A stretch of 64,000 nt of DNA from PVC group bacterium (GTDB lineage: Bacteria > Auribacterota > Erginobacteria > Erginobacterales > Erginobacteraceae): the NCBI GenBank assembly GCA_040773245.1, contig JAXGWO010000004.1:4290-68289 (forward strand), read 5' to 3'. The position numbers and the translations under genes were made by a program. Of the stretch, positions 12,939 through 59,188 are shown piece after piece. The notes below the pieces were generated by a model that was not told the DNA's origin, made no database searches, and worked only from the letters and a program-made list of their open reading frames with translations. Positions within the stretch are counted from its first letter, which is position 1, and every line of letters starts with the position of its first letter.

Positions 12939-13010
12939 GCGGGTGTAGCTCAATGGCAGAGCTCCAGCTTCCCAAGCTGGCTACGAGGGTTCGATTCCCT
13001 TCACCCGCTT
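12939..13010 (+). tRNA. tRNA-Gly (anticodon CCC).
   Basis: Cloverleaf folded by hand. Acceptor GCGGGTG/CACCCGC, D-stem GCTC/GAGC, anticodon stem CCAGC/GCTGG with loop TTCCCAA, T-arm GGTTCGATTCC. Confidence 0.8.
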
Positions 13011-39422: not shown

Positions 39423-39495
39423 GGGCGATTAGCTCAGCGGGAGAGCACCTGGATCACAACCAGGGGGTCACTGGTTCAATCCCAGTATCGCCCAT
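39423..39495 (+). tRNA. tRNA-Val (anticodon CAC).
   Basis: GGGCGATTAGCTCAGCGGGAGAGC D-arm, anticodon stem CCTGG/CCAGG with loop ATCACAA, T-arm GGTTCAATCC, acceptor GGGCGAT/ATCGCCC. Confidence 0.8.
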
Positions 39496-40283: not shown

Positions 40284-40688
40284 AACGGGGAGAGGTAGAT
40301 GGTCGCCTCCCGCCGCCGCCTTAAGGCGAAGGCGGGGGGAGGAAAGTCCGAACTCCGCAGGGCAGGGCGCCCCGAGAAGATCGGGGGCCCCGGGGGGGAG
40401 ACCCCCCGGGGACGGAAAGTGCCGCAGAAAACAGACCGCCGATGGTCCCGATCCCCGGATCGGGGCACAGGCAAGGGTGAAAAGGTGCGGTAAGAGCGCA
40501 CCGCCCGGCGCGTGAGCGCCGGGGCAGGGCAAACCCCGCCCGGAGCAAGGCCAAATAGGGGCCGAGGTGCTGCCCGCACCGTTCGAGGCCCGGGTAGGCC
40601 GCACTGAGCCCGAGGGCAACCGAGGGCCGAGATAGATGACCATCGCCCCTTAAAGGGGGACAGAATTCGGCTTATTCCTCTCCCCGTC
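40284..40688 (+). ncRNA. rnpB: RNase P RNA, bacterial type A.
   Basis: Universally conserved rnpB blocks are all present: GGAAAGTCCGAACTCC...CAGGGCAGG, GGAAAGTGCCGCAGAAAACAGACCGCC, GGTAAGAGCGCACC, GGGCAAACCCCGCCCGGAGCAAGGCCAAATAGGGG, AGATAGATGA and the P4 3' strand ACAGAATTCGGCTTA. P1 pairs ACGGGGAGAGG with CCTCTCCCCGT. Confidence 0.85.
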
Positions 40689-40709
40689 CTGCCGATCTTT
40701 TCCCTGCCG

Positions 40710-44755: not shown

Positions 44756-46248
44756 AACTGGCCCGGCTGATCAAGGATCTGGAGCCGGTCGAAACCCGGG
44801 GCAATCTCGGGGTCGAGGTGACCGGTCTCGCCGCCGACTCCCGGCGGGTCTCTCCGGGCGATCTCTTCGTCGCCGTCCCCGGCGCCCGCCGCAACGGGCT
44901 GGAGTTCCTCTTTGAGGCCCGCGACCGGGGCGCGGTGGGGGTGGTGGCGGCCGAGTTCCCTTCCGCCGCCAACGGCAACCTGGTTCAGGTGAAGGTGGAG
45001 GACCCCCGCCGGGCCCTGGGCCTGCTGGCCAACCGGTTCTTCGACTACCCGGCCGCCGGCCTGAAACTGATCGGGGTGACCGGGACCAACGGCAAGACCA
45101 CCGTCTCCATCCTCGCCCGGGCGGTGCTGGAGGAGGCCGGGATACCGACCGGTCTGCTGGGCACCATCTACTACGGGATCGGCCAGCGGCAGATCCCCTC
45201 CAGCCTGACCACGCCGGAACCTCCCCGCCTCCAGGAACTCCTGGCGGAGATGAAGCGGGCGGAGGTCACCCACGCCATTCTCGAGGTCTCCTCCCACGCC
45301 GTCGCCCAGGAACGGCTGGCCGGGATCGAGTTCTCCACCGGTGTCTTCACCAACCTCTCCCGGGAACACCTGGATTTCCACCGGACGATCGACGAGTACC
45401 GGGCCGCCAAGCTCCGGTTCTTCTCCTCCCTCCACCGGGGTTCCCCGGCCCCGGAGGAGAAGACGGTGATCGTCAACATCGACGATCCCCTGTCGGAGAA
45501 GATTCTCCACCGTCTCCCGGTCCCGGCGGTCACCTACGGCTTCTCCCCCCGGGCCGACCTCGCCGCCTCCCGGCTGGCCCCGACCCGGACCGGCACCCGG
45601 TTCACGGTCCGCTGGCGGGACGGACTCATCCCGGTCCGGATAAATCTGCCCGGCCGGCACAACGTCCTCAACGCCCTGGCGGTCTTCGCCCTGGGGCGGA
45701 GCGAGGGGGTCGCCCCGGAGGCGATCGCGCGGACCCTGGAGAATCACCCGGGGATACCCGGCCGCCTGGAACGGGTCGAGACCGGGCGGGGCTTCGATCT
45801 CTTCGTCGATTACGCCCACACCCCGGACGGCCTGGAGAACGTTCTCCCGGCTCTCCGCCGCCTGTACAGGAAGCGGTTGATCCTGGTCTTCGGCTGCGGA
45901 GGGGACCGCGACCCCGGGAAGCGTCCCCTGATGGGGAAGGCGGCCGCCCGCTGGGCGGACCGAGTCATCATCACCTCGGACAACCCGCGCTCGGAAAACC
46001 CCGGCGGGATCATCGCGCAGATCAAGGCCGGGATCCCCCGGGGGTCGCGGGGGGTGAAGGCGATCGAGGACCGGAGGGAGGCGATCGCCGAGGCCTGCCG
46101 GACGGCCCGGCCCGGCGACGCCGTCCTGATCGCCGGGAAGGGGCACGAGCGGGAGCAGATCTTCGCCGACCGGGTCATCCCCTTCGACGACCGGGAGGCC
46201 GTTCGGAAGATCCTGGCCGAACTGCCGAAGAAATATGCCGGGAAGTGA
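44752..46248 (+). CDS. murE: UDP-N-acetylmuramoyl-L-alanyl-D-glutamate--2,6-diaminopimelate ligase.
   Basis: Mur ligase domains, GVTGTNGKTT P-loop. The GTG start overlaps ftsI's stop; track ORF 44215-46248 has a spurious 5' extension. Confidence 0.9.
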   Translation: MKLARLIKDLEPVETRGNLGVEVTGLAADSRRVSPGDLFVAVPGARRNGLEFLFEARDRGAVGVVAAEFPSAANGNLVQVKVEDPRRALGLLANRFFDYPAAGLKLIGVTGTNGKTTVSILARAVLEEAGIPTGLLGTIYYGIGQRQIPSSLTTPEPPRLQELLAEMKRAEVTHAILEVSSHAVAQERLAGIEFSTGVFTNLSREHLDFHRTIDEYRAAKLRFFSSLHRGSPAPEEKTVIVNIDDPLSEKILHRLPVPAVTYGFSPRADLAASRLAPTRTGTRFTVRWRDGLIPVRINLPGRHNVLNALAVFALGRSEGVAPEAIARTLENHPGIPGRLERVETGRGFDLFVDYAHTPDGLENVLPALRRLYRKRLILVFGCGGDRDPGKRPLMGKAAARWADRVIITSDNPRSENPGGIIAQIKAGIPRGSRGVKAIEDRREAIAEACRTARPGDAVLIAGKGHEREQIFADRVIPFDDREAVRKILAELPKKYAGK

Positions 46249-46254
46249 ACGATT

Positions 46255-47706
46255 ATGGAATCGCAGCGGATCAGGACCATCGCCGGCTGGACGAAGGGCA
46301 ATCTGGAGCGGGGCGACCCGGAAGGGACGGCGTCCGGGGTCGCCATCGACAGCCGGACCATCCGTCCCGGGGAGATCTTCCTCGCCCTGGCGGGAGGGAG
46401 GTATGACGGTCACGACTACGCCGCCGCCGCCCTCGATTCCGGGGCGGCCGGGGTGATCCTCTCCCGACCGGCGGCGGAGATCGAGCGGCGGGAGGGAGAG
46501 TTCGCCCTGATCCGGGTCGGGGCCGGACTCCCGGCGCTGGCCGGTCTGGCCCGGGGTTACCGGAGACTGTTCAGCCCGGCGGCCATCGCCGTCACCGGGA
46601 GCAACGGGAAGACCACGACCAAGAACCTGATCGGGCTCTTCCTGGGGGAGGATAGGGCGACCCTGACCGCCCCCGCCAGCTACAACAACCTGATCGGCGT
46701 CTCCCTGACCATCCTCCGGCTCTCCGGGACGGACCGGGCGGCGGTCTTCGAGCTGGGCACCAACCATCCCGGGGAGATCGGGGAACTGGCCCGCCTCTGC
46801 CGTCCCTCGCGGGCGGTGATCACCAATATCGGCCCCGCCCACCTCGGCCGTTTCGGCAGCCTGGAGGCGGTCGCCGCCGAGAAGGGGCAGGTGCTGGAGG
46901 CCCTGGAAGGAGAGAAGACAACCTTCCTCAACACCGACGATCCGCGGGCGGCGGCCCTGGCCGGCCGGGCCCCCGGGGAGGTGATCGGTTTCGGTCTGGA
47001 GCCGCCGGCCCGGGTCCGCGCCCTGGATATCCGCCGCCGCCCCGGCGGGGTCAGTTTCCGGGCCACCCTCCGGGGAGGCGAACTTCCGATCGAGGCCCCG
47101 CTGCCCGGGCGGCACAATATCCTCAACCTGCTGGCCGCCCTGGCGGTTGGGGATCACTTCGGGGTCGATCCCGAGGCGATGCGCCAGGCGGCGCTGAAGG
47201 CCGCCCTTCCCCCCGGACGGATGGAGAGAATCAGGCTGGGTGGGGCGGAGGTCATCAACGACGCCTACAACGCCAACCCGGTCTCGATGACGGCGGCCCT
47301 GGCGGCCTGGCTGGAGATGGACTGCCCGGGAAGAAGGATCCTGGTCAGCGGGGATATGAACGAACTGGGCGATTTCTCCGAAGCCGCCCATCGGGAATGG
47401 GGAGAGCGGTTGTCCGGATCGGGGCTCGACACCCTGATTTTTCTCGGTCCCCTCTCCCGGGCGGCGGCCGAAGCCGCCCGGGCCACCGGCGGGACCGTCC
47501 GGGTGGAGACCGTCGATGACTGCCGGGAAGCGGCGGAGATTTTAAATGCCATCGTCCGTCCCGGGGACAGCGTCCTGCTCAAGGGCTCGCGGAAGATGGG
47601 GCTGGAGGAGATCGTGGAGATACTGAGAAGTCAGAAGTCGGAGGTCAGAAGTCAGAATACAGAATACAGAATTCAGAAGGGGGAGCCGGGGGCCGGGTCA
47701 TTCTGA
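46255..47706 (+). CDS. murF: UDP-N-acetylmuramoyl-tripeptide--D-alanyl-D-alanine ligase.
   Basis: GSNGKTTTKNLI P-loop and Mur ligase domains. The C-terminal approximately 25 aa read into the heptamer repeat array. Confidence 0.9.
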   Translation: MESQRIRTIAGWTKGNLERGDPEGTASGVAIDSRTIRPGEIFLALAGGRYDGHDYAAAALDSGAAGVILSRPAAEIERREGEFALIRVGAGLPALAGLARGYRRLFSPAAIAVTGSNGKTTTKNLIGLFLGEDRATLTAPASYNNLIGVSLTILRLSGTDRAAVFELGTNHPGEIGELARLCRPSRAVITNIGPAHLGRFGSLEAVAAEKGQVLEALEGEKTTFLNTDDPRAAALAGRAPGEVIGFGLEPPARVRALDIRRRPGGVSFRATLRGGELPIEAPLPGRHNILNLLAALAVGDHFGVDPEAMRQAALKAALPPGRMERIRLGGAEVINDAYNANPVSMTAALAAWLEMDCPGRRILVSGDMNELGDFSEAAHREWGERLSGSGLDTLIFLGPLSRAAAEAARATGGTVRVETVDDCREAAEILNAIVRPGDSVLLKGSRKMGLEEIVEILRSQKSEVRSQNTEYRIQKGEPGAGSF

Positions 47707-47745
47707 CTTCTGAATTCTGTATTCTGAATTCTATATTTCAACAAG
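47621..47745. repeat. Heptamer-family palindromic array: CAGAAGT/CAGAATA x8, inverted as ACTTCTG/TATTCTG.
   Basis: AGAAGTCAGAAGTCGGAGGTCAGAAGTCAGAATACAGAATACAGAATTCAGAAG ... CATTCTGACTTCTGAATTCTGTATTCTGAATTCTA between murF and mraY. Confidence 0.8.
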
Positions 47746-47755
47746 GACTTTAACT

Positions 47756-48862
47756 ATGTTCTACCACATCTTCTACCCGCTCCGCGATCTCTGGTTCGGC
47801 TTCAATATCTTCCGCTACATCACCTTCCGGTCGGCCGCGGCGGCCCTGACCGCCTTCCTGATCAGCGTGATCTTCGGTCCCGCCCTGATCCGGAAGCTGC
47901 GGGAGCTGAAGGTCGGGGAGAAGGTCCGGAACGGGAAGTGCTATGAAGAACTCTACCGCCGCCACAAGGACAAGGAGGGGACCCCGACGATGGGCGGGCT
48001 GATCATCATCCTGGCGGTGATGGCGGCCACGGTTCTCTGGGCCCGCCTGGAGACGACCCAGGTGATCATCATCGTGATCTCCTCCCTCTGGCTGGGAACC
48101 ATCGGTTTCATCGACGATTGGATCAAGCTGAAGCGGCTCGGCCGGCGGGGGCTGCGGGGCCGGGTCAAGCTGGCCGGGCAGGTGGTCCTCGGGCTGGCGA
48201 TCGGTCTCTTTCTCACCTACCATCCCGAGACTTCCGCTTACGCCGGTCACCTCTGGGTCCCCTTCTACAAGCACGCCGTCCTGGAGAACATCGGCCTCTT
48301 CTCCATCCCCCTGGTCATCCTGGTCCTGGTCGGTTCGACCAACGCCGTCAACCTGACCGACGGCCTCGACGGCCTGGCCGTCGGCTGCCTGGCGATCGCC
48401 GCCCTCGCCTTCGCGGCGCTGGCCTACCTGATCGGCCACATCGAGTTCGCCGCCTACCTCCAGGTACCCTACATCCCGGGGGCCGGGGAACTGACGGTCT
48501 TCTGCGCCGCCCTGGGTGGCGCCGGCCTCGGCTTCCTCTGGTTCAACGCCTACCCGGCCGAGATCTTTATGGGCGACACCGGGGCCCTGGCCTGCGGGGG
48601 AGCGATCGGAACGGTGGCGGTGCTCCTGAAGAAGGAACTCTTCCTCCTCCTGATCGGGGGGGTCTTCGTGGTCGAGGCCCTCTCGGTGATCCTCCAGGTG
48701 GCCAGCTTCCGCCTCCGGGGCGGGAAGCGGATCTTCCTGATGGCCCCGCTCCACCATCACTTCCAGATCAAGAACATCCCGGAGAACAAGATCACCGTCC
48801 GCCTCTGGATCTGCGCGGTGATCTGCGCCCTGATCGGACTGGGGGCGCTGAAGATGCGATGA
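47756..48862 (+). CDS. mraY: Phospho-N-acetylmuramoyl-pentapeptide transferase.
   Basis: 10-TM MraY with conserved DD and HHH motifs (NAVNLTDGLDGLA). Confidence 0.95.
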   Translation: MFYHIFYPLRDLWFGFNIFRYITFRSAAAALTAFLISVIFGPALIRKLRELKVGEKVRNGKCYEELYRRHKDKEGTPTMGGLIIILAVMAATVLWARLETTQVIIIVISSLWLGTIGFIDDWIKLKRLGRRGLRGRVKLAGQVVLGLAIGLFLTYHPETSAYAGHLWVPFYKHAVLENIGLFSIPLVILVLVGSTNAVNLTDGLDGLAVGCLAIAALAFAALAYLIGHIEFAAYLQVPYIPGAGELTVFCAALGGAGLGFLWFNAYPAEIFMGDTGALACGGAIGTVAVLLKKELFLLLIGGVFVVEALSVILQVASFRLRGGKRIFLMAPLHHHFQIKNIPENKITVRLWICAVICALIGLGALKMR

Positions 48863-50232
48863 AAATCGGGGATGCCGCCATAATCGGACTGGGCCGAAGC
48901 GGCGAGGCGGCGGCGGAACTGCTCCTGGAGAGGGGGGCCGCAGTGACCGTCTTCGACGACCGGGCCGGGCCCGCCCAGCAGGAGAGAGCCGTCCGGCTGA
49001 AGGAGAAGGGAGCGGTTCTTCACCTGGGAGCGGAGTCGGGGAAGGGGTGGGGCGGCTTCCGGACGGTGATCGCCAGCCCCGGGGTCCCCCCCGGCCATCC
49101 GCTGCTGGCCCGGGCGCGGCGGGAAAAGGTCCCGGTCATCTCCGAGGTCGAACTGGCCGGCCGCTTCCTGAAAGGACGGCTGATCGCGGTCACCGGGACC
49201 AACGGCAAGACGACCACGGTCAGCCTGCTGGTCGAGATCTTCCGCCGGGCGGGGGCGAAGGCCGCGGCGGCGGGCAATATCGGCTACCCGCTCTGCCGGC
49301 TGGTCCGCGAAGGCAATGATTGCGCGGTGGTGGTGGCGGAGATCAGTTCCTTCCAGCTGGAACAGGTCGAAACCTTCCGGCCGGGGAGCGCGGTCTTTCT
49401 CAACCTGGCGCCCGATCATCTCGACCGCTACCCGGGGATGAAGGAGTACGGGGAGGCGAAGCTGAAGATCTTCGCCCGCCAGGGGAGGGGGGATCGGGCG
49501 ATCTACCCCGAGTCCCTGGCCGCTTTCGTGGAGCGGACCCTGCCCCCCGGCGTGGAGAAGGTAACCTGGGGCGGGAAACGGGGAACGGTACGGTTCGAGC
49601 GGGGTGAACTTCGTTACTATTCCCCCGGCGGCGGGGGAACGATCTGCCGCGAAGAAGATATCGCGGGCCGGGGCGCGGCCTTCCGCGAGAACGTCCTGGC
49701 CGCCGCCGCCGTCGCCCTCCGGGAAGGGGTGGCGGCGGGGGATATCGCCGCCGTCCTGGGGACCTTTGCCGGCATCCCCCACCGGCTGGAGTACGTCGCC
49801 GGGGCGGCGGGGGTGGAGTTCTACAACGACTCCAAGGCCACCAACCCGGCGGCGGTGGCCGCGGCCCTGGAGTCTTTCTCCCGTCCGGTCATCTGGCTGG
49901 CCGGGGGGAGCGACAAGAGTCTCGACTTCTCCCCCCTGGGGCCGCTTCTGCCGGGACGGGTGAAGCGGGCGATTCTCCTGGGAGAGACCCGGGAGAAGCT
50001 GCGTTCCCTGGCGGAGGGGAGAGTAGCCTTCCAGGTTGTCTCCAGTCTCCCGGAGGCGGTCGGCGCGGCCTGGCAGGCAGCCGCCCCGGGGGACGTGGTC
50101 CTTCTCTCCCCCGGGTGCGCCAGTTTCGATATGTTCCCCGACTACCGGGCCCGGGGGGAGCTCTTCAAATCCCTGGTCGGGGAACTGGTGTCCCGGGCCG
50201 GAAAGGCCCAACGGAGTCAATGTCCCCGGTAA
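48859..50232 (+). CDS. murD: UDP-N-acetylmuramoylalanine--D-glutamate ligase.
   Basis: N-terminal Rossmann GLGRSGEAAA and GTNGKTTT P-loop. ATG overlaps mraY's stop. Track ORF 48118-50232 has a spurious 5' extension. Confidence 0.9.
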   Translation: MKIGDAAIIGLGRSGEAAAELLLERGAAVTVFDDRAGPAQQERAVRLKEKGAVLHLGAESGKGWGGFRTVIASPGVPPGHPLLARARREKVPVISEVELAGRFLKGRLIAVTGTNGKTTTVSLLVEIFRRAGAKAAAAGNIGYPLCRLVREGNDCAVVVAEISSFQLEQVETFRPGSAVFLNLAPDHLDRYPGMKEYGEAKLKIFARQGRGDRAIYPESLAAFVERTLPPGVEKVTWGGKRGTVRFERGELRYYSPGGGGTICREEDIAGRGAAFRENVLAAAAVALREGVAAGDIAAVLGTFAGIPHRLEYVAGAAGVEFYNDSKATNPAAVAAALESFSRPVIWLAGGSDKSLDFSPLGPLLPGRVKRAILLGETREKLRSLAEGRVAFQVVSSLPEAVGAAWQAAAPGDVVLLSPGCASFDMFPDYRARGELFKSLVGELVSRAGKAQRSQCPR

Positions 50233-50253
50233 AACCGGGCTGATTTATCCGGG

Positions 50254-50356
50254 GTCGGTATCGCTATCGGGATCGGAATCGAAGGTGTTCGCGGTTCGAT
50301 AGCGATAGCGATAGCGATACCGATACCGATAGCGATAGCGATTCCGATAGCGATTG
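50254..50356. repeat. Hexamer-family palindromic array, the largest in the window with about 15 units.
   Basis: GGTATCGCTATCGGGATCGGAATCGAAG ... CGATAGCGATAGCGATAGCGATACCGATACCGATAGCGATAGCGATTCCGATAGCGATTG between murD and the LysM lipoprotein. Confidence 0.8.
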
Positions 50357-50395
50357 TTGATGGGAACAATACCCCCAAGGGGGGAGGAGGGAGAG

Positions 50396-50830
50396 ATGAT
50401 GAATAAGACCAGGATGGTATTTTACGGATCGCTGGGAGCCCTGGTGTCGGTGCTGATCTGGAGTTTTATCGGCGGCTGCCACACTTCTTCCCGGCCGCTG
50501 CCCCCGGTGCCTCCGGCCGAAGAACCGGCCCCCGAAGAGATCGCCCCGCCGGCCCCGGTCAGCCAGGAGACCCTGATCGAGGAGGGGATCACGGCCGGCG
50601 ACCAACCACCGGTTGCGGCCGAACCTCCGCCGGCCCCGAAGGAAGCGCCGGCGGCCGAAGCGGTCGAAGCCCCAGCGCCGGCTCCTTCCCGGACCCACAC
50701 GGTGGCCAAGGGCGATACCCTCTGGGGGATCAGCAAGCAGTACGGGGTGACCACGAAAGCGATCGAAGAGGCGAACAAACTCGCGGATCCCGACCGCCTC
50801 TCGGTGGGGCAGCAGCTGGTCATCCCCTGA
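50396..50830 (+). CDS. LysM-domain lipoprotein with a Pro/Ala-rich linker, inserted in the dcw cluster.
   Basis: Signal peptide with a lipobox-like FIGGC, a PAPEE-rich low-complexity linker and a C-terminal LysM (HTVAKGDTLWGISKQYGV...VGQQLVIP). GGAGG RBS. Confidence 0.7.
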   Translation: MMNKTRMVFYGSLGALVSVLIWSFIGGCHTSSRPLPPVPPAEEPAPEEIAPPAPVSQETLIEEGITAGDQPPVAAEPPPAPKEAPAAEAVEAPAPAPSRTHTVAKGDTLWGISKQYGVTTKAIEEANKLADPDRLSVGQQLVIP

Positions 50831-50858
50831 ACCCCGGGATGAAGAGACGGACGGAGAT

Positions 50859-52055
50859 TTGATGCGCGCCGCAATCCAGACCGGGAGCGAAAGCTGGCGG
50901 CCCGGCAATCATCTGCCGCTGATCCTGATCTCCCTGGTGGCCGGCCTGATCGGGCTCGGCCTGCTGATGATCTACAGCTCTTCCGCCGTCTATTCCCTCG
51001 ACACCTACGGCGACCGCTACTTCATCATCCGGCGCCAGCTGCTCTGGCTGGGGGCGGGACTGGCCGCCGCCGTCGCCGCCGCCCGGATCGATTACCGCCG
51101 GCTCCAGGGGAAGAGCCGGCTGCTGCTCCTGGCCGGGGTCGTTCTCCTGGCGGCGGTCTTCGTCCCCGGCTTGGGCCGGAGCGGGGGCGGCGCCCGGCGC
51201 TGGCTGGCGGCGGGGGTGATCAGTTTCCAGCCCGCCGAACTGGTGAAGTACCTGGTGGTCATCTATCTGGCCGACCTCCTCTCCCGCCGCCAGCGGGAGA
51301 TAACCCGCTTCGGCACCGGTTTTCTCCCCCCGCTGGCGGTGATCGGGCTGCTCAGCGGCCTGGTGCTGATCCAGCCCGACCTGGGGACCGCCCTCTCCAT
51401 CGCCGCCATCGGCCTGCTCCTGCTCTATCTCGGCGGGGCCCGGCCGGCCCATCTCGGAGCCCTCTGCCTTACGGCCCTCCCGGTGCTGGCGGTGATGGTG
51501 GTCCGGGTCGGTTACCGGATGCGGAGGATCCTGGCCTTCGTCGATCCCTGGGCCGATCCCCGGGGGGCCGGTTTCCAGATCATCCAGTCGCTGATCGCGC
51601 TGGGCTCGGGCGGTCCGACCGGACTGGGACTGGGCGAGAGCCGGCAGAAGCTCTTCTACCTCCCGGCGGCGACCACCGACTTCATCTTTTCCATCCTTGG
51701 CGAGGAACTGGGTTTCCTCGGCAGCGCCCTGACCGTCGCTCTCACGGCGGGGATACTGATAACCGGTTTCCGGATCGCCGGCCGTTCGAGCGATCTCTTC
51801 GGGCAGCTCCTGGCCCGGGGAGTGACCGCGATGCTGGTTCTCCAGGCTTTGATCAATATGGGGGTCTCCTGCGGGATGCTTCCGACCAAGGGGCTGCCTT
51901 TCCCCTTCATCAGTTACGGCGGCTCCAACCTTTTGGCCAGCTGCCTGGCGGTGGGGCTGCTGATCTCCGTCGCCGTTCACTCCGACAACGAATGCCGCCG
52001 GCGGGGCCGCCGGCAGGCGATCCGTCTCTTTCAACCAAGGACCGGGGGACAGTGA
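50859..52055 (+). CDS. ftsW: SEDS-family peptidoglycan glycosyltransferase FtsW.
   Basis: 10-TM SEDS protein; track ORF 50859-52055. Start is TTG at 50859 or ATG at 50862. Confidence 0.9.
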   Translation: MMRAAIQTGSESWRPGNHLPLILISLVAGLIGLGLLMIYSSSAVYSLDTYGDRYFIIRRQLLWLGAGLAAAVAAARIDYRRLQGKSRLLLLAGVVLLAAVFVPGLGRSGGGARRWLAAGVISFQPAELVKYLVVIYLADLLSRRQREITRFGTGFLPPLAVIGLLSGLVLIQPDLGTALSIAAIGLLLLYLGGARPAHLGALCLTALPVLAVMVVRVGYRMRRILAFVDPWADPRGAGFQIIQSLIALGSGGPTGLGLGESRQKLFYLPAATTDFIFSILGEELGFLGSALTVALTAGILITGFRIAGRSSDLFGQLLARGVTAMLVLQALINMGVSCGMLPTKGLPFPFISYGGSNLLASCLAVGLLISVAVHSDNECRRRGRRQAIRLFQPRTGGQ

Positions 52056-52234
52056 TGAAAGACCACGAGCTCTGCCCGTACTTCGAAACCTGCCTGATCA
52101 GCAACCTCCTCAAGACCATCGATGTCCCGGAGGTCCTGCGCTACTGCGCCGGCAATTATCAAAACTGTCGCTACCTTCCGCGGTCGGCCCGGAGCCGGCC
52201 GTTCGCGGATAAACGGGAGCCCGCCAAGGTATGA
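52055..52234 (+). CDS. Small four-cysteine protein of 59 aa, translationally coupled between ftsW and murG.
   Basis: ATG at 52055 overlaps the ftsW stop; its stop overlaps the murG ATG (ATGA). Sequence MKDHELCPYFETCLISNLLKTIDVPEVLRYCAGNYQNCRYL. Confidence 0.5.
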   Translation: MKDHELCPYFETCLISNLLKTIDVPEVLRYCAGNYQNCRYLPRSARSRPFADKREPAKV

Positions 52235-53346
52235 GACTGGCCCTGGCCGGAGGCGGCACCGGGGGACACCTGGCCCCGGCCATCGCGCTCCTCGAAGAAC
52301 TGGGGAACCGGGGGGGAGTTCCCGGGGGCCTCGTCCTGACCTCCGGCCCGCCCGCCGCCGCGCTGGAGCGGTCCGCCCCCGGCAGCCGGGTCGTCTCCAT
52401 CGACTCCGCCCCCCTCGTCCTGAGCCGTCCCTGGCGGCTCCCGGCCCGGCTGCTGAGGATCCGGCGGGGGTACCGCCGGTCGCTCGCGGCCCTGCGGAAG
52501 TTCCGGCCCGACCTGGTGATCGGGTTGGGGGGATACGTCTCCGCCCCCCCTCTCCTGGCCGCCCGGCGGCTGAAGATCCCGGCGGTCTGCCACGAGCAGA
52601 ACCGGGTGCCGGGCCGGGCCAACCGTCTTCTGGCCCGGGGCCCGGTCCGGGTTATCTCCGCCTTCCCCCTGCTCCCGGGGAGGATCGACCCCGCCCGGGT
52701 GACCTGCCTGGGTGCGCCGGTCCGCCGGGCGGCGCTGGCCCCGGCCCCGGAGGGGACCGCCGGGGCCTGGGGCCTGGAACCGGGGAGGTTCACCCTCCTG
52801 GTCCTCGGGGGGAGCCGGGGGGCGAGGGCGATCAACCGGCTGCTGGAGACGTCGGCCGGCGCGCTGGCCGGTCCCTGCCCGCCGGAGCAAGTCCAGGTTA
52901 TCCACTGCGCCGGCGCGGAGGACTCCGAACGGCTGCAGCGGGCTTACCGGGTGGCGGGGCTGGCGGCCGCCGTCTTCCCCGGCCTGGAGGAGATCGGCTG
53001 GGCTTACTCCCTGGCCGACCTGGCGGTGAGCCGGGCCGGGGGGGCGACCCTGAGCGAGCTGGCCGCCTGGGGGCTGCCCTCCCTCCTCATCCCCTATCCC
53101 TTCGCCACCGAGAACCACCAGATGGAGAACGCTCTCTATTTCCGGGCGGCGGGGGCCGCGGTGGTCTTCCCGGAAGGGGAGATCGGCGCACCGGTTCTGG
53201 CCCGGGAGATTTTCCGGATCCGCTCCGACGGGGAACTCCGCCGGAAGATGTCCGCCGCAGCCCGGAGTCTGCATCGCCCCGCCGCGGCGGAAAAGATCAT
53301 CGATTGCCTGGAGAAAATGCTGGAGGAGTATGATCAACCGCGATGA
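52231..53346 (+). CDS. murG: Undecaprenyldiphospho-muramoylpentapeptide beta-N-acetylglucosaminyltransferase.
   Basis: LAGGGTGGHLAPAIAL motif and GT28 fold. Confidence 0.9.
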   Translation: MRLALAGGGTGGHLAPAIALLEELGNRGGVPGGLVLTSGPPAAALERSAPGSRVVSIDSAPLVLSRPWRLPARLLRIRRGYRRSLAALRKFRPDLVIGLGGYVSAPPLLAARRLKIPAVCHEQNRVPGRANRLLARGPVRVISAFPLLPGRIDPARVTCLGAPVRRAALAPAPEGTAGAWGLEPGRFTLLVLGGSRGARAINRLLETSAGALAGPCPPEQVQVIHCAGAEDSERLQRAYRVAGLAAAVFPGLEEIGWAYSLADLAVSRAGGATLSELAAWGLPSLLIPYPFATENHQMENALYFRAAGAAVVFPEGEIGAPVLAREIFRIRSDGELRRKMSAAARSLHRPAAAEKIIDCLEKMLEEYDQPR

Positions 53347-54766
53347 CAGGATGCTGCTCTTCGGCCGGCCCGACGTCGTCTCCGTCCACCTGGTCGGGGC
53401 CGGCGGAGCCGGGATGAACGTCCTGGCTCGGATCCTGCTCACGCTCGGTTTGGAGGTCAGCGGATCCGACGTCCGGCTCACCCCGGTGACCGAGCGGCTG
53501 GCCCGCCGGGGGGCACGGATCGTCCCCGGGCACCGGGACAGTCTCCCCGGGCGGCCCGACCTGGTGGTTTACTCCTCCGCGGTCGCCGCCGACAACCCGG
53601 AACTCGCCCGGGCCCGGCAACTGGGGATCCCGATCCTCCACCGGTCGCAGGTCCTGGCCGGCCTGACCCGCCTGAAGCCTTCGGTGGCGATCGCCGGAAG
53701 CCACGGGAAGACCACCACCGCCGCCCTGATCGCCTGGATCCTGGTCTCCGCCGGCCGCCGGCCCTCCCTGGCCCTGGGCGGGGAGGCGATCGGCCTGGAA
53801 GACCACCCCGGCTGGGACGAGGGCGGTCTCCTGGTGGCGGAGGCGGACGAGAGCGACGGTTCGCTGGAGCGTCTCTCCCCCCGGGCGGAGGTGATCACCG
53901 GGCTCGACCTCGACCACGTCGATTACTATTCCAGCTGGGAGAAGCTGATCCTGACCTTTTCCCGGTTCACCGAGCGCCTTCCCCGCGACGGGCTGCTGGT
54001 GGTGAACGAGAGCACTCCCCATCTCCACCGCCTGATCCGGGGCGGCTTCCGGGTGGTCTCCTACGGGCTCGGGGAGGGGGCGAACCTGCGCGGCCGGGTG
54101 GTCTCCCTCGACGCCGAGGGGAGCCGCTTTACGGTCTGGCGGGGCGGCTGGCAGCTGGGGGAGGCGCGGCTGCCCCAGCTCGGCCTCTGCGGGGTGGTCA
54201 ACGGCCTGGGGGCGATCGCCTTCTGCCGGGAGGCGGGGGTCTCCTTCGAGGAGATCGCCCGGGGGCTGGAGACCTTCCCGGGCGTGAGGCGGAGGCTGGA
54301 GATCAGGTCCCGCCGCCCGTTCCTCCTGGTCGAGGATTACGCCCATCACCCGGTCGAGATCGCCGCCGCATTGGCGGCGGTCCGCTCGGCGAACCCGGTC
54401 CGGATCTGGTGCGTCTTCCAACCCCACCGCTACAGCCGGACCCGGCACTTCGCCCGGGCCCTGGCCGAGTCCCTGCTGGGTGCGGACCGGATTATCCTGG
54501 CCGACCTCTACCCGGCCTTTGAGCAGCCGTTGCCGGGGGTGAGTTCCCGGCTCATTCTCGAGACCCTCAACCAGCGGGGGCGGGCCGACGCCCGGCTGCT
54601 GGAAAAGCCGGCCATCCGTTCACTTCTCGAACGGGAGGCCGCCCCGGGCGACGCGGTGGTGATTATGGGGGCGGGTGATATCGGCTCCCTGGCCGGGGAA
54701 CTGGCGCGGTCCGGGGCCGGCTCCCCGTCCTCCCTTCCGGGGGCTGGAGAAGAAGTTGAAGAATAA
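53330..54766 (+). CDS. murC: UDP-N-acetylmuramate--L-alanine ligase.
   Basis: GAGMNVLARIL Rossmann, GSHGKTTT P-loop and Mur ligase domains. Confidence 0.9.
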   Translation: MINRDDRMLLFGRPDVVSVHLVGAGGAGMNVLARILLTLGLEVSGSDVRLTPVTERLARRGARIVPGHRDSLPGRPDLVVYSSAVAADNPELARARQLGIPILHRSQVLAGLTRLKPSVAIAGSHGKTTTAALIAWILVSAGRRPSLALGGEAIGLEDHPGWDEGGLLVAEADESDGSLERLSPRAEVITGLDLDHVDYYSSWEKLILTFSRFTERLPRDGLLVVNESTPHLHRLIRGGFRVVSYGLGEGANLRGRVVSLDAEGSRFTVWRGGWQLGEARLPQLGLCGVVNGLGAIAFCREAGVSFEEIARGLETFPGVRRRLEIRSRRPFLLVEDYAHHPVEIAAALAAVRSANPVRIWCVFQPHRYSRTRHFARALAESLLGADRIILADLYPAFEQPLPGVSSRLILETLNQRGRADARLLEKPAIRSLLEREAAPGDAVVIMGAGDIGSLAGELARSGAGSPSSLPGAGEEVEE

Positions 54767-55736
54767 GGCAGCAACAGGGTCAAGGCCCGATTCTCTCCCG
54801 GATCCCGGCGCGGTCGGGCTGGTCGGGGTTCTCCTCGGCGGACCCTCGGCCGAGCGGGAGATCTCCCTGAAATCGGGCCGGGCGGTCTCCCGGGCCCTCC
54901 GGGAGGCCGGGTACTCCGTGGTGGAGATCGGGGAGGAGGGGGATATCGGGGCCGGGATCAGGTCGCATCCCCTGGCCGCGGCCTTCATCTCCCTCCACGG
55001 CCGGTTCGGGGAGGACGGGACGGTCCAGGGGATGCTGGAGGAGATGAATATCCCCTATACCGGTTCGGGGGTGGAGGCCAGCCGCCGGGCGATGAACAAG
55101 GCCGCCGCCCGCCGGCTGTTCGAGCGGGCGGGTCTTCCGGTCCCGCCGGGCCGGGTTTACGGCCCCGGATCCGGCCCCCGGAACTCTCCCTTTCCGCTTC
55201 CGGTGGTGGTGAAGCCGGCCCGGGAAGGATCAAGCATCGGTCTCAGCCTGGCCCGGACCCCGGACGAGTTCCGGGCGGCGGTCGCCCGGGCCCGGGAGCA
55301 CGACCGGGAGATCCTGGTCGAAGAGTACATCCCGGGGCGGGAACTGACGGTCGGGGTGCTCGACGACCGGCCGCTCCCCCTGGTCGGGATCCGGCCGGGA
55401 AACCAATTCTTCGATTTCGAGGCCAAGTACGTCCCGGGAAAATCCCGGTTTGAAGTCCCGGCGCATCTCCCCGACCCTCAGTACCGGGAGATCCAGAGAC
55501 TGGGCCTGGCGGCCCACCGGGTTCTGGGTTGCTTTTCCTACTCCCGGGCGGATATCATCCTCGGACCCGGCGGCCGGCCCTTTCTCCTGGAGGTGAACAC
55601 GATCCCCGGTTTCACCGCGACCAGCCTCCTGCCCCAGGCGGCGGCCGCCGCCGGCATCGACTTCACCAGCCTCTGCCGCCGCCTGCTGGCGGCGGCCCTG
55701 ACCCGGGGGAACTACCGCGGCCGAAGGGACAAATGA
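54756..55736 (+). CDS. ddl: D-alanine--D-alanine ligase.
   Basis: ATP-grasp with GEDGTVQG and EVNTIPG motifs. The start is uncertain (TTG at 54756 assumed); track ORF 54675 begins inside murC. Confidence 0.8.
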   Translation: MKNKAATGSRPDSLPDPGAVGLVGVLLGGPSAEREISLKSGRAVSRALREAGYSVVEIGEEGDIGAGIRSHPLAAAFISLHGRFGEDGTVQGMLEEMNIPYTGSGVEASRRAMNKAAARRLFERAGLPVPPGRVYGPGSGPRNSPFPLPVVVKPAREGSSIGLSLARTPDEFRAAVARAREHDREILVEEYIPGRELTVGVLDDRPLPLVGIRPGNQFFDFEAKYVPGKSRFEVPAHLPDPQYREIQRLGLAAHRVLGCFSYSRADIILGPGGRPFLLEVNTIPGFTATSLLPQAAAAAGIDFTSLCRRLLAAALTRGNYRGRRDK

Positions 55737-55903
55737 ACCGCGGATTTAGCGGATGGGGCGGATTAGAGAAAAGCATTCCGTTCCAGCTTCTTAGTCCGCG
55801 ACATCTGAAGATTTTGGAAAAAAACTCAACTGTTGATTAAAAATCAGAAACAATCCGCTTAATCCTCATAATCCGCGGTTAAATATCCTCAAGGAGGGAG
55901 AAG

Positions 55904-56740
55904 ATGAAGTGGCTGATCCTGAGCAGCAAGGTAACCCGGCCCCCCCGGCGGCTGCGGGCCGCCGCCCCGGCCCGCCGGCGGCGGAAGAAGGACCCGGTCC
56001 CGGATCGGGGCTCCGTCTCCCGGCCGCGATCGGCCGGCGGTGCGGTCCTGGTCCTGATCCTACTGGCCGCGCTGGTGGGGGGGCTCTGGTGGTACTTCCG
56101 CCACTCGGAACTCTTCACGGTCGAGGAGATCGAGGTTGTCAACTCCCACGTCTACTCCCCCGAGGAGATCATCGAGATGGCCGGGATCGAGACCGGGGGG
56201 AATATATTCCCGCTGGATTCCGCTGCCGCCCGGGAGGCGATTATCCGGCACCAGGATTTCCGCGAAGCCCACGTCCGGAAGATCTTTCCTTCCACCGTTC
56301 GGATCGAGGTGATGGAACGGGAGCCCCGGGCCCGGGTCATCTTCGGTCAATACTACACCATCGACGAAGAGGGGGTGGTGCTCGGTCCCAAGAAGTCGTC
56401 CTCGGAGCGGAACCTCCCCGCGATCCGCGGGCTGAAGCTGGTGAACAAATCGAACGATCTCTATCCTCCGGAGAAGCGGGCCGCCTCGCTGGAGCTGCTG
56501 AAGGAACTGGAACGGCTGGAGATCGAGAACCTGATCCGGATCGAGGAGATCAGCGTCGATTTTTCCGACCGGATTGAATTGAAGGCGGAAGGCAGGCTGG
56601 ACATCACCCTGGGGCCGGAAAGTTACGGCGAGCAGCTGCTGAGATTGAAAGCGGTCCTGGAGAAACTGGGGCCGGACCTTGCCCGCGCCCCCCAGATCGA
56701 TCTCCGTTACTCCAAGGTCCCGGTGCGATTCCGGGATTGA
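55904..56740 (+). CDS. ftsQ: Cell division protein FtsQ.
   Basis: Basic N-terminus, single TM helix and a POTRA domain (FTVEEIEVVNSHVYSPEEI). Confidence 0.8.
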   Translation: MKWLILSSKVTRPPRRLRAAAPARRRRKKDPVPDRGSVSRPRSAGGAVLVLILLAALVGGLWWYFRHSELFTVEEIEVVNSHVYSPEEIIEMAGIETGGNIFPLDSAAAREAIIRHQDFREAHVRKIFPSTVRIEVMEREPRARVIFGQYYTIDEEGVVLGPKKSSSERNLPAIRGLKLVNKSNDLYPPEKRAASLELLKELERLEIENLIRIEEISVDFSDRIELKAEGRLDITLGPESYGEQLLRLKAVLEKLGPDLARAPQIDLRYSKVPVRFRD

Positions 56741-56776
56741 ATAATAATCCGCATAATCCGCGGTTGCCTAATTAAG

Positions 56777-58003
56777 ATGAGCAAGAAAGGGGAGATTGTC
56801 GCCGGTCTCGACGTGGGGACGACCAAGATCTGTCTCCTGGTCGGCGAACGGACGGGGGAGGATGAAGTGCGCATCCTCGGCGTGGGCAGTCAGCCCTCGT
56901 TCGGGATGCGGAAGGGAGAGGTGGTGAACGTGGAGCGGACCGTGGAGTCGATCCGCAAGGCTCTCGAACAGGCCGAGGACACCTGCGGGATGAAGATCGA
57001 TTCGGCCTACGTCGGGATCGCCGGGGGCCACGTGGAAAGTTATAACCGCCGGGCGATCCTGCCGATCGTCAACCCCGCGGCCGGCGTCAGCCGGAAGGAT
57101 ATGTCCGCCGCGGTGGAGGCGGCCGGCCGGATCTCGCTTCCCCCGGACCGGGAGATTATCCACGTCCTGGCCCAGGACTACTCGGTCGATGACCGGACGG
57201 GGATCATCGAACCGGAGGGGATCCAGGGTTCGCGGCTGGAGGCCAACGTCCACCTGGTGACCGCGCGGACGCCGGCGGTGGAGGATATCCTCAACTGCGT
57301 CCGGCAGGCCGGCCTGGGAGTGGCGGAGATTATGCTCCAGCAGCTGGCCTCCAGCCTGGCGGTGATGACGGACGAGGAGCAGGAGTCGGGGGCGATCCTG
57401 ATCGATATCGGGGGGGGCACCACCGACTACGTCTTCTTCCGCAACAACATAGTCCGCCACACCCGGGTTCTCCCGGTGGGCGGAGACCACGTGACCAACG
57501 ACATCAGCCTGGGGATGAAGCTGCGGATCCCCCAGGCCGAGGAGTTGAAGAAGAGATCCGCCTCGGCCCTCTCCGCCCGGGTGGGGGAGGACGAGCAGCT
57601 CTCCCTCCCCGCGGCCCTGGTCCGTTCGTCCGGCGGGCCGTCGCGGAAGACCCTCTGCCGGATCGTCGAGCTGAGACTCGCCGAACTCTTCCAGCTGATC
57701 CGCCGGGATCTGGAAAAGGCCGAACTCTTCCAGAACATCGGCAGCGGGATCGTCCTGACCGGGGGAGGGGCCCTGCTCGGGGATATCGCGCTGCTGGCGG
57801 AGCGGGAAACGGAGCTCCCGGTGCGGCTCGGCCTCCCCCACGGCTTCTGCGGCCTGAGGGAGGTGATCGACAGCCCGGTTTTCGCGACCGCGGCGGGCCT
57901 GGTCAAGTACGGCCTGAATTGCGGGCAGACCCGCTCGACCCGGCCGCCCGGCCGGGGGAGCGTCTTCGGCGTACTCCGGCGGTGGCTGGATCGTTATTTT
58001 TAA
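56777..58003 (+). CDS. ftsA: Cell division protein FtsA.
   Basis: Actin-like ATPase, GLDVGTTKICLLVG phosphate-1 motif, 408 aa. Confidence 0.9.
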   Translation: MSKKGEIVAGLDVGTTKICLLVGERTGEDEVRILGVGSQPSFGMRKGEVVNVERTVESIRKALEQAEDTCGMKIDSAYVGIAGGHVESYNRRAILPIVNPAAGVSRKDMSAAVEAAGRISLPPDREIIHVLAQDYSVDDRTGIIEPEGIQGSRLEANVHLVTARTPAVEDILNCVRQAGLGVAEIMLQQLASSLAVMTDEEQESGAILIDIGGGTTDYVFFRNNIVRHTRVLPVGGDHVTNDISLGMKLRIPQAEELKKRSASALSARVGEDEQLSLPAALVRSSGGPSRKTLCRIVELRLAELFQLIRRDLEKAELFQNIGSGIVLTGGGALLGDIALLAERETELPVRLGLPHGFCGLREVIDSPVFATAAGLVKYGLNCGQTRSTRPPGRGSVFGVLRRWLDRYF

Positions 58004-58027
58004 CTGTGATCAGCGTCGGGAGGGATT

Positions 58028-59188
58028 ATGAGCAAGCAGGAGGAACCAGGCAAGTTAGCCCTCTGGGGGGTCGGCGATCAGGGGATCCGGGTCATCTCCT
58101 CCCTGCCGGAAGAGGTCCGGCGGCGGGTCCGGCCGGCGGCGGTCGACTCCGACCTCCAGTCCCTGATCTGCGGGCCGACCGTGCAGAAGATCAGGATCGG
58201 GTCCAAGTCCGGCCCCGCCAACGGTCCGGGCGGGGATCCGGAAAAACTGCTGAAGGCATTCCGGGAGAGCGAGGAGAAGATCCGGGAGAAACTCTCCGAG
58301 GCCCAGATCCTGCTCGTGGTCGGCGGACTCGGGGGAGGGGTGGGGAGCGTCCTGATCCCCGCCCTCTGCCGCTGCGCCCGGCAGCGCAAGATCATCACCC
58401 TTGTCTTCGCCACCCGCCCTTTTGCCTTTGAGGGGAAGAAGAGAAGCCGGATCTACCAGCAGGCGAGAAAGGAGATCGAGGAGAGCGGGGTCGGGATGGC
58501 CTGTTTCTCCCTCGACCGGCTGGTCGGCCGGATCGAGGAAGAAATACCCCACCAGGAGGTCTTCCATCGCTGCGACCGGATCCTGAGGGACGCGGTGGAG
58601 TGCGCCGTCGCCTACCTCTTGTCCCCGCCCGACCAGGGCGGCGATCGGTCCTCCCTGGGGGACGTTTTCGCCGCCTCCGGGGAGGCGGTGATGGGCGTGG
58701 AAGAGGCGGCCGGGCCGGAGGAATTGGTGAAGTCGGCCAAGGCGGCGCTTTCCTCCCTGTCGCTCTCCGCCGCCGAACTGGCCGGGGTCCGGGGGGTGCT
58801 GGTCCAGATCGACGGACCGGAAGCGATCCCCTTCCGCCGGGTGCAGGAGGCGATCGGTTCGATCTCCCGGCTGCTCGGCGAAGAGACCGACCTGCTTTAC
58901 ACCGTCACCCGGCGGGAAGAGCCCGGGTGGAAGATCAGTTTCCGCCTTTTGGCCGGGGGGATCGCCTCCGGCCCGCCCCGCGGCGCGGGCTCCCCGATCC
59001 CGGTGACCCTGAACCGCGACGGCCACCGCCCCCGGCAGGAGAAGATGGATTTCGACAAGTTCACCCGGGGAGTGTTCGCCCCGACCGAGCCGACCTCCCG
59101 GGACGGCGAGGACCTGGATATCCCGACCTTCATCCGGCAGGGCGTCCAGCTGGAAGGGGAAGGAAAAGACGCCCGGTCGGTGCCATGA
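58028..59188 (+). CDS. ftsZ: Divergent FtsZ homologue with degenerate GTP-binding and catalytic motifs but a conserved C-terminal peptide.
   Basis: Aligns along its length with FtsZ (AVDSDLQSL, TRPFAFEGKKR, GVRGVLVQI, C-terminal DLDIPTFIR). The G1 box reads GVGDQGIRV instead of GVGGGGGNA, and the T4 loop reads GGLGGGVGS instead of GGGTGTG. Confidence 0.8.
   Translation: MSKQEEPGKLALWGVGDQGIRVISSLPEEVRRRVRPAAVDSDLQSLICGPTVQKIRIGSKSGPANGPGGDPEKLLKAFRESEEKIREKLSEAQILLVVGGLGGGVGSVLIPALCRCARQRKIITLVFATRPFAFEGKKRSRIYQQARKEIEESGVGMACFSLDRLVGRIEEEIPHQEVFHRCDRILRDAVECAVAYLLSPPDQGGDRSSLGDVFAASGEAVMGVEEAAGPEELVKSAKAALSSLSLSAAELAGVRGVLVQIDGPEAIPFRRVQEAIGSISRLLGEETDLLYTVTRREEPGWKISFRLLAGGIASGPPRGAGSPIPVTLNRDGHRPRQEKMDFDKFTRGVFAPTEPTSRDGEDLDIPTFIRQGVQLEGEGKDARSVP

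Follow-up and report, generated by a model that had tools for sequence, protein, structure and literature searches.

Which gene, if any, occupies the short interval between ftsW and murG in the division and cell wall (dcw) cluster of a bacterium from the Planctomycetes-Verrucomicrobia-Chlamydiae (PVC) group, and what might its product do there? The question is raised by a stretch of 64,000 nucleotides (nt) of contig JAXGWO010000004.1 (GenBank assembly GCA_040773245.1, positions 4,290 to 68,289 of the forward strand), referred to below as the window, in which a 59-codon open reading frame (ORF) lies between the two genes at 52055..52234 (+). We name this ORF X. A sequence-only reading of the same DNA had singled it out as a real operon member, encoding a four-cysteine protein for which there was no equivalent gene in model dcw clusters. 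Judged by comparison with its relatives, X founds an undescribed family of soluble proteins of 56-59 amino acids (aa) in a narrow uncultured lineage. We lean towards the view that its product is a cytoplasmic Cys4 metal-binding miniprotein that is co-translated with MurG and serves as an accessory or regulatory partner of that enzyme.

The X translation (MKDHELCPYFETCLISNLLKTIDVPEVLRYCAGNYQNCRYLPRSARSRPFADKREPAKV, 59 aa) comprises a conserved core of approximately residues 5-42 and a variable tail (residues 43-59), with Cys at positions 7, 13, 31 and 38 (CX5C...CX6C). As had been described from the sequence alone, the ORF fills the gap between its neighbours and overlaps both of them. The ftsW stop TGA (52053-52055) shares 1 nt with the X ATG (52055-52057) in the string TGATG, and the X stop TGA (52232-52234) lies over the murG ATG (52231-52233) to give an ATGA junction at 52231..52234 (+), which is a translational coupling. 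The genes ftsW, X and murG are each in a different reading frame. The ribosome-binding region of X (52040..52057, +) contains GGGGGA 5 nt before the ATG at 52055, and falls within the final ftsW codons. An alternative 80-aa version appears in the ORF listing, starting from an in-frame ATG at 51992 within ftsW, but the 52055 start is favoured because homologues of 56-59 aa share that Met behind a purine-rich motif resembling a Shine-Dalgarno (SD) sequence. The possibility that ftsW terminates later, which the sequence-only reading had listed as a threat to its proposal, was also checked: ftsW does not run past 52055, since the match to the FtsW profile is already complete at residue 373-375 of 398. 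Within the window, no terminator-like sites were found on the + strand between ftsW, X and murG, the full X motif occurs once in the six-frame translation, and no X paralogues were found.

The window DNA is 66% GC and rich in long spurious ORFs, such as one of 403 aa in a wrong frame of murG, so the length of the ORF is not evidence for X; conservation is. A first search of 5.8 billion protein clusters returned 7 clusters, each exactly 59 aa long and with 64-100% identity. Among 1.84 billion representative proteins, a profile built from these clusters matched only ones of 56-59 aa, and iterated searching brought the total to 27 homologue clusters of 56-59 aa. The third iteration added P0034 only, a 42-aa truncated call of the same ORF (L022/L027, Ga0208279_1002352) whose public start is an internal Met of a 59-aa frame; this is an example of small-gene mis-annotation. 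Neither fusions nor larger relatives of X were found among the 1.84 billion representatives, where no FtsW or MurG sequence, nor any longer protein, contained the X motif. X thus belongs to a small, closed family that is never fused to larger proteins. A metagenome scan with group-B sequences only gave 6 loci, and a scan of species-representative genomes with patterns specific to the close group gave 2 loci only.

Across the alignment of 27 sequences, eight residues are invariant (M1, C7, P8, C13, Y30, C31, C38 and Y40), and P25 and R39 are conserved in at least 90%. The signature of the family is C-P-x4-C-x17-Y-C-x6-C-[R/K/V]-Y. We propose to define the family by a length of 56-59 aa with C-P-x4-C-x17-Y-C-x6-C-x-Y, and by a genomic context in which the gene follows ftsW and ends in a 4-nt overlap between its stop codon and the murG start; the window protein and the window gene show all of these features. 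The CxxxxxC...CxxxxxxC arrangement pointed out in the sequence-only reading thus holds at all four positions and throughout the family, as would fit a metal or redox site.

We also assessed the pattern of substitution in X and its neighbours, using ratios of nonsynonymous to synonymous substitution rates (dN/dS). Between the window and L007, dN/dS was 0.14 for X (0.07 for core codons 1-42), 0.24 for ftsW and 0.36 for murG, and between the window and L005 the values were 0.08, 0.25 and 0.43, respectively; over close pairs the ranges were 0.08-0.14 for X, 0.18-0.25 for ftsW and 0.32-0.43 for murG. Variable sites within codons 1-42 were distributed 12/7/34 over codon positions 1/2/3 in group A (six sequences; chi-square p = 8e-6) and 14/8/26 in group B (five sequences; p = 0.005). 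The GC content of X by codon position, read in frame, is 0.57/0.43/0.80, which is like the third-position GC bias of the neighbouring genes. We see, then, both frame-specific substitutions and dN/dS values well below 1, the marks of purifying selection. Conservation of the frame and of synonymous sites had been named in advance as the test on which the ORF should stand or fall, and with 27 clusters, dN/dS of 0.08-0.14 and the 12/7/34 distribution it comes out as strongly coding. From these sequence patterns we take it as practically certain that X is coding and that the family is real.

The position of the gene is equally well kept. X follows ftsW in all readable loci (window, L001-L011, L013, L014, L016-L023 and L026-L028) and directly precedes murG wherever the contig extends that far. 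This synteny spans lineages of 50-68% GC, with FtsW identities of 57-85% among X-bearing loci; the most distant syntenic lineages have FtsW 57-67% and MurG 33-52% identical to those of the window. In each of the 15 distinct relatives' loci with the junction on the contig (L005, L007, L009, L011, L013, L014, L016-L021, L023, L024 and L026), the X stop and the murG start overlap by 4 nt, with ATG, GTG or TTG as the murG start (ATGA, GTGA or TTGA). Every relative examined, again over 50-68% GC, has a purine-rich SD-like motif before the X ATG. In most loci this is GGAGG, AGGAG, GGGAG, GAGGA or GGGGA at a distance of 5-9 nt, and it is weak in L005 and in L020-L022 (GGGGAA, GGGGAG).

The junction on the ftsW side is far less uniform. 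The two genes overlap by 1 nt in the window, L005 and L009, by 4 nt in L011 and L017, and by 8 nt in L016; they are separated by gaps of 14 nt in L007, 69 nt in L028, 121 nt in L018 (L018:1726-1846), 312 nt in L019 (L019:2497-2808), approximately 350-390 nt in L021, L022, L026 and L027, and approximately 800 nt of apparently non-coding DNA in L020 (L020:2202-3000). As the distance from ftsW to X varies while the overlap with murG is invariant, the conserved linkage is that of X to murG, not that of ftsW to X. The tight coupling that had been noted on both sides of X therefore survives on the murG side, where the 4-nt overlap never changes, and fails on the ftsW side, which runs from an 8-nt overlap to a gap of about 800 nt; the broader claim of a real operon member is borne out by conservation and by the murG coupling in relatives. 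Two side observations concern the same loci. The lower-GC (approximately 51%) relatives have an ftsW-X spacer of 121 to about 800 nt without a convincing ORF, and such long spacers may house a promoter or regulatory region belonging to X-murG itself. In L016 (L016:8365-10946), from a distant relative, the order beyond murG is disrupted: murG and ddl are separated by a pair of small ORFs, a murC-like ligase gene in inverted orientation and a gene resembling PagL. This locus keeps the X-murG coupling despite the disrupted order.

As for the hosts, L013, in which X is 64% and FtsW 80% identical to the window's, comes from the metagenome-assembled genome (MAG) of Candidatus Erginobacter occultus (Candidatus Auribacterota, PVC group), and the range of FtsW identities suggests that the X-bearing loci belong to Candidatus Auribacterota or near relatives. 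One X member is labelled 'Proteobacteria bacterium' in NCBI, which we judge to be an unreliable MAG label. Candidatus Auribacterota are described as anaerobic and fermentative, producing hydrogen or sulfide (PMC9324843). With anaerobic hosts, a cytoplasmic disulphide role for the Cys residues is unlikely, and a metal site is more likely.

The protein itself is hydrophilic (grand average of hydropathy -0.55) and has no transmembrane segment, and no DNA-binding motif was found in it. An AlphaFold2 model built on the 27-sequence alignment has a mean predicted local distance difference test (pLDDT) score of 70, rising to about 83 in the core, and places helices at residues 14-21 and 27-37. C7 and P8 lie in an N-terminal loop in this model, C13 is just ahead of the first long helix, and C31, within the second helix, is seven residues (about two turns) away from C38, which follows directly after that helix. 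This predicted geometry could unite the four thiolates. A second run on a group-B target gave helices at approximately 13-21 and 24-32 with an extra tail helix, but at a mean pLDDT of 60 it was too weak to use. Foldseek comparison of the model with the PDB and a sequence-profile search of the PDB both gave no match, and no Pfam or NCBIfam family scored above threshold for the window protein or any of the 27 members; the recurrent sub-threshold matches were to DUF5651 and poliovirus P3A. Literature searched on Auribacterota, on the ftsW-murG interval and on PVC dcw clusters contained no mention of such a gene. The statement that there is no equivalent gene is thus upheld in Pfam, NCBIfam, the PDB and the literature searched.

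Taken together with the genomic context, these properties lead us to the following proposal. The core (residues ~5-42) would set four invariant Cys on a predicted pair of short helices, most likely around a single metal centre, which may be a structural Zn(II) or an iron-sulphur (Fe-S) cluster, two options that sequence does not distinguish. X would be translated from its own SD site, and its ribosomes would terminate on the murG start codon, such that a single mRNA would yield X and MurG together. The most likely function of X would then be to assist or regulate MurG, as a small partner protein, on the cytoplasmic side of the membrane, and the variable tail would serve chiefly to keep ribosomes translating as far as the murG start. 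Of the parts of this proposal, metal binding by X is probable in our estimation, and a specific partnership between X and MurG is put forward more tentatively, as something short of an even bet. The metal- or redox-sensing accessory role in the lipid II machinery that was suggested at the outset is one that we infer from the genomic context and the Cys pattern.

Several observations weigh against this proposal. The structural models are moderate to poor, with mean pLDDT of 70 and 60, and the CX5C and CX6C spacings differ from the CxxC knuckles of classical zinc ribbons. Neither MurG nor the FtsW tail has a conserved Cys or an obvious lineage-specific partner feature. Adjacency and coupling can also mirror shared expression needs without any complex being formed. 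Lastly, the family is small and its sources are metagenomes only. A metal site shared between X and its neighbours was considered separately and rejected: 4 of 13 lineages lack the FtsW-tail Cys, and none of the Cys residues of MurG is invariant.

The best of the competing explanations, which we regard as possible but unlikely, is that X is indeed a functional Cys4 miniprotein, but with a target other than MurG. It might serve another part of the divisome or elongasome (FtsW, MraY or FtsZ/FtsA), or be a small redox- or metal-responsive regulator whose place in the dcw operon is incidental. Three points speak for such a target: X is always found within the dcw cluster after ftsW, the partners of several small regulators of cell division are not encoded next door, and no MurG-specific co-varying feature was found. 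However, murG is the only gene to which X is physically linked without variation, the distance to ftsW ranging from an 8-nt overlap to some 800 nt, and the protein has neither a DNA-binding motif nor a membrane segment.

A further hypothesis, which we consider improbable, makes X a dedicated subunit of MurG that works as a metal or redox switch. Oxidation of a Cys4 Fe-S or Zn centre, or loss of its metal, would on this view alter binding to MurG, so that lipid II synthesis, and with it the septal and lateral growth of the wall, would be gated by the redox or metal status of these strict anaerobes.

Also improbable, in our view, is the idea that X serves chiefly as a coupling or leader ORF, a device that brings ribosomes to a murG start that is often weak (GTG or TTG, with a poor SD sequence), and whose peptide has little or no function. 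The invariance of the 4-nt overlap, together with the GTG or TTG start of murG in several lineages, is what such a device would be expected to show. So is the behaviour of the tail (codons 43-59; 52181..52231, +), which is variable, has no conserved charge, and yet always keeps the frame open to the murG start. Variable sites in the tail fall 12/13/14 by codon position in group A and 10/8/6 in group B, with no periodicity, as expected from selection for coupling alone, and the isoelectric point of the tail ranges from 4.1 to 11.8 across the family while its length is nearly fixed at 14 or 17 residues. For the tail, we infer that selection acts mainly to keep ribosomes translating to murG. The core tells against extending this to the whole ORF: codons 1-42 are more strongly constrained than FtsW or MurG, the total length is fixed at 56-59 aa, and eight residues including the four Cys are invariant where MurG is only 33-50% identical, although coupling needs no particular sequence.

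The end of the tail, E-x-A-x-V, is weakly conserved, and the near-terminal Glu-x-Ala is encoded with GAG GCx in many relatives; from the junction sequences, these codons may double as the murG SD sequence, and the ending may reflect that sequence (GAGG) and the start codon. A GC-rich palindrome, GGTCGGCC...GGCCG, lies in 52181-52231 and pairs in the alignment fold into a hairpin that has weak support and is not significant in either energy or covariation. We also considered whether the X/murG junction holds an RNA element, or a hairpin that would hide the murG start, and rejected the idea: the minimum free energy z-score is 0.09, the covariation term is positive (unfavourable), and no Rfam family was found at this junction.

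That X is not a gene at all, being a chance frame in a GC-rich spacer or a piece of ftsW or murG split off by a sequencing frameshift, is what abundant spurious long ORFs at 66% GC and three genes in three frames with overlapping ends might lead one to suspect, but the comparative data refute it: the same start and length recur in independent assemblies from many samples and from lineages of 50-68% GC, X stands alone behind a spacer of 69-800 nt in several lineages, substitutions are frame-specific, FtsW and MurG fill their full-length profiles without X, and the motif is absent from FtsW, MurG and longer proteins among the 1.84 billion representatives.

Returning to our favoured explanation of X as a Cys4 miniprotein made together with MurG, comparison with known systems helps to place it. 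The closest in kind are the prokaryotic zinc-finger and zinc-ribbon miniproteins (CPxCG-type; YacG), which, like X, are soluble, shorter than 70 aa, have four Cys as the sole invariant polar residues, and hold one presumed metal. Such small zinc-finger miniproteins often act by binding a larger partner protein. In zinc ribbons, however, two CxxC (CPxCG) knuckles are carried on β-hairpins, whereas 27 of 27 X members have CX5C and CX6C spacings and the core is predicted to be helical. The only matches to zinc-finger profiles were sub-threshold ones to zf-TRAF and zf-CCCH, each in 2 of 27 members. The likeness is one of kind only.

A looser analogy might be drawn with the WhiB-like (Wbl) [4Fe-4S] proteins such as WhiB2/WhmD, which are also small and mostly helical, have four invariant Cys including a CX5C, and are redox-sensitive cofactor holders tied to cell division and septation. 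The Wbl proteins differ in their C-Xn-C-X2-C-X5-C pattern, G[V/I]WGG turn, basic C-terminus, binding to a sigma factor and DNA, and restriction to Actinobacteria and their phages. None of the 27 X members matches the Whib Pfam model at E <= 1, and the Wbl motifs are absent from the X alignment. The twin-CX9C or CHCH miniproteins share with X a predicted helix-turn-helix core with one Cys pair from each half. CHCH proteins have CX9C (or CX3C) disulphides and reside in an oxidising eukaryotic compartment, whereas X has CX5C and CX6C and belongs to the cytoplasm of anaerobic bacteria; it lacks the two CX9C motifs in a helical hairpin that define the CHCH fold, and its own hairpin is a prediction of moderate confidence.

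The sole recurring Pfam model to which X can be likened is DUF5651 (PF18892), an uncharacterised family with a profile of 53 positions. Weak matches to it in 10 of 27 members cover C13...C38-Y40 (profile positions 25-51 of 53), but lie far below the gathering threshold (13.3 bits for the window protein vs 27; best E = 0.048 over the 27 members). We treat this match as a lead, not as membership, and it may be a mere coincidence of Cys and aromatic pattern. Nothing was found on DUF5651 in the literature searched.

With regard to genomic setting, X resembles the small dcw and divisome proteins FtsL, FtsB, SepF, MciZ, CrgA and SidA, which are also encoded in or near the division-cell-wall cluster. 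These proteins act by binding the core machinery, and X is likewise co-transcribed with core genes. They are, however, membrane-anchored coiled coils or peptides that bind FtsZ or FtsW, and have no Cys4 motif. We know of no described small gene that lies between ftsW and murG or is coupled to murG.

MurG makes lipid II, the universal building block of peptidoglycan, and to our knowledge no dedicated small MurG partner has been described in model bacteria. It is in this setting that a whole candidate phylum, albeit a narrow one, has retained a 59-aa protein of the Cys4 type that is more constrained than MurG and whose translation is always locked to that of MurG. X represents an undescribed family of a generally familiar kind, in which a Cys4 miniprotein and its likely partner are encoded side by side, and its interest stems mainly from the prospect that this partner would be MurG. 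If X binds MurG, it would offer a natural handle on the regulation or scaffolding of lipid II synthesis, possibly tied to redox or metal status, and if the switch hypothesis were true, MurG would thereby gain its first described small regulatory subunit. If X is only a structural zinc miniprotein, the result is a modest, lineage-restricted improvement in annotation. In addition, this is a new small-protein family of the type that domain databases miss and that gene callers can truncate, as in the 42-aa public call.

The genes on either side are readily recognised. The SEDS (shape, elongation, division and sporulation) glycosyltransferase gene ftsW is at 50859..52055 (+; TIGR02614, 385.7 bits; PF01098, 363 bits), with a start at 50862 in the public gene call. 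The lipid II synthase gene murG (glycosyltransferase family 28) is at 52231..53346 (+); its product matches PF03033 and PF04101, and scores 249.1 bits against TIGR01133, for which the cut-off is 250.25. The order of the cluster, read from the gene calls of public contig L001 (100% identical to window 46055-58234), is murE-murF-mraY-murD-LysM protein-ftsW-X-murG-murC-ddl-ftsQ-ftsA-ftsZ. Densely overlapping genes are the rule through most of this operon, and X is therefore not exceptional merely for overlapping its neighbours. For instance, murG and murC overlap by 17 nt (53330-53346) and murC and ddl by 11 nt (54756-54766); the group-A loci that cover these junctions all show the 17-nt overlap of murG and murC, and their murC/ddl overlaps measure 4-11 nt.

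Between murD and ftsW, the dcw cluster carries another lineage-specific insert, the LysM gene (50354-50830, +; 50399-50830 in the public gene call). It encodes a protein of approximately 143-158 aa in which a hydrophobic anchor at the N-terminus is joined, through a linker rich in Pro and Ala, to a LysM domain at the C-terminus (PF01476, E = 1.9e-17). The gene is kept at the same position in all X-bearing loci whose contig covers the interval. The product is possibly a peptidoglycan-binding divisome protein comparable to the SPOR-domain protein FtsN. Further upstream of the dcw region, the window encodes a bacterial class A RNase P RNA (233.5 bits) at 40286-40690 (+), as well as tRNA-Gly(CCC) and tRNA-Val(CAC) at 12939-13009 (+) and 39423-39494 (+), respectively.

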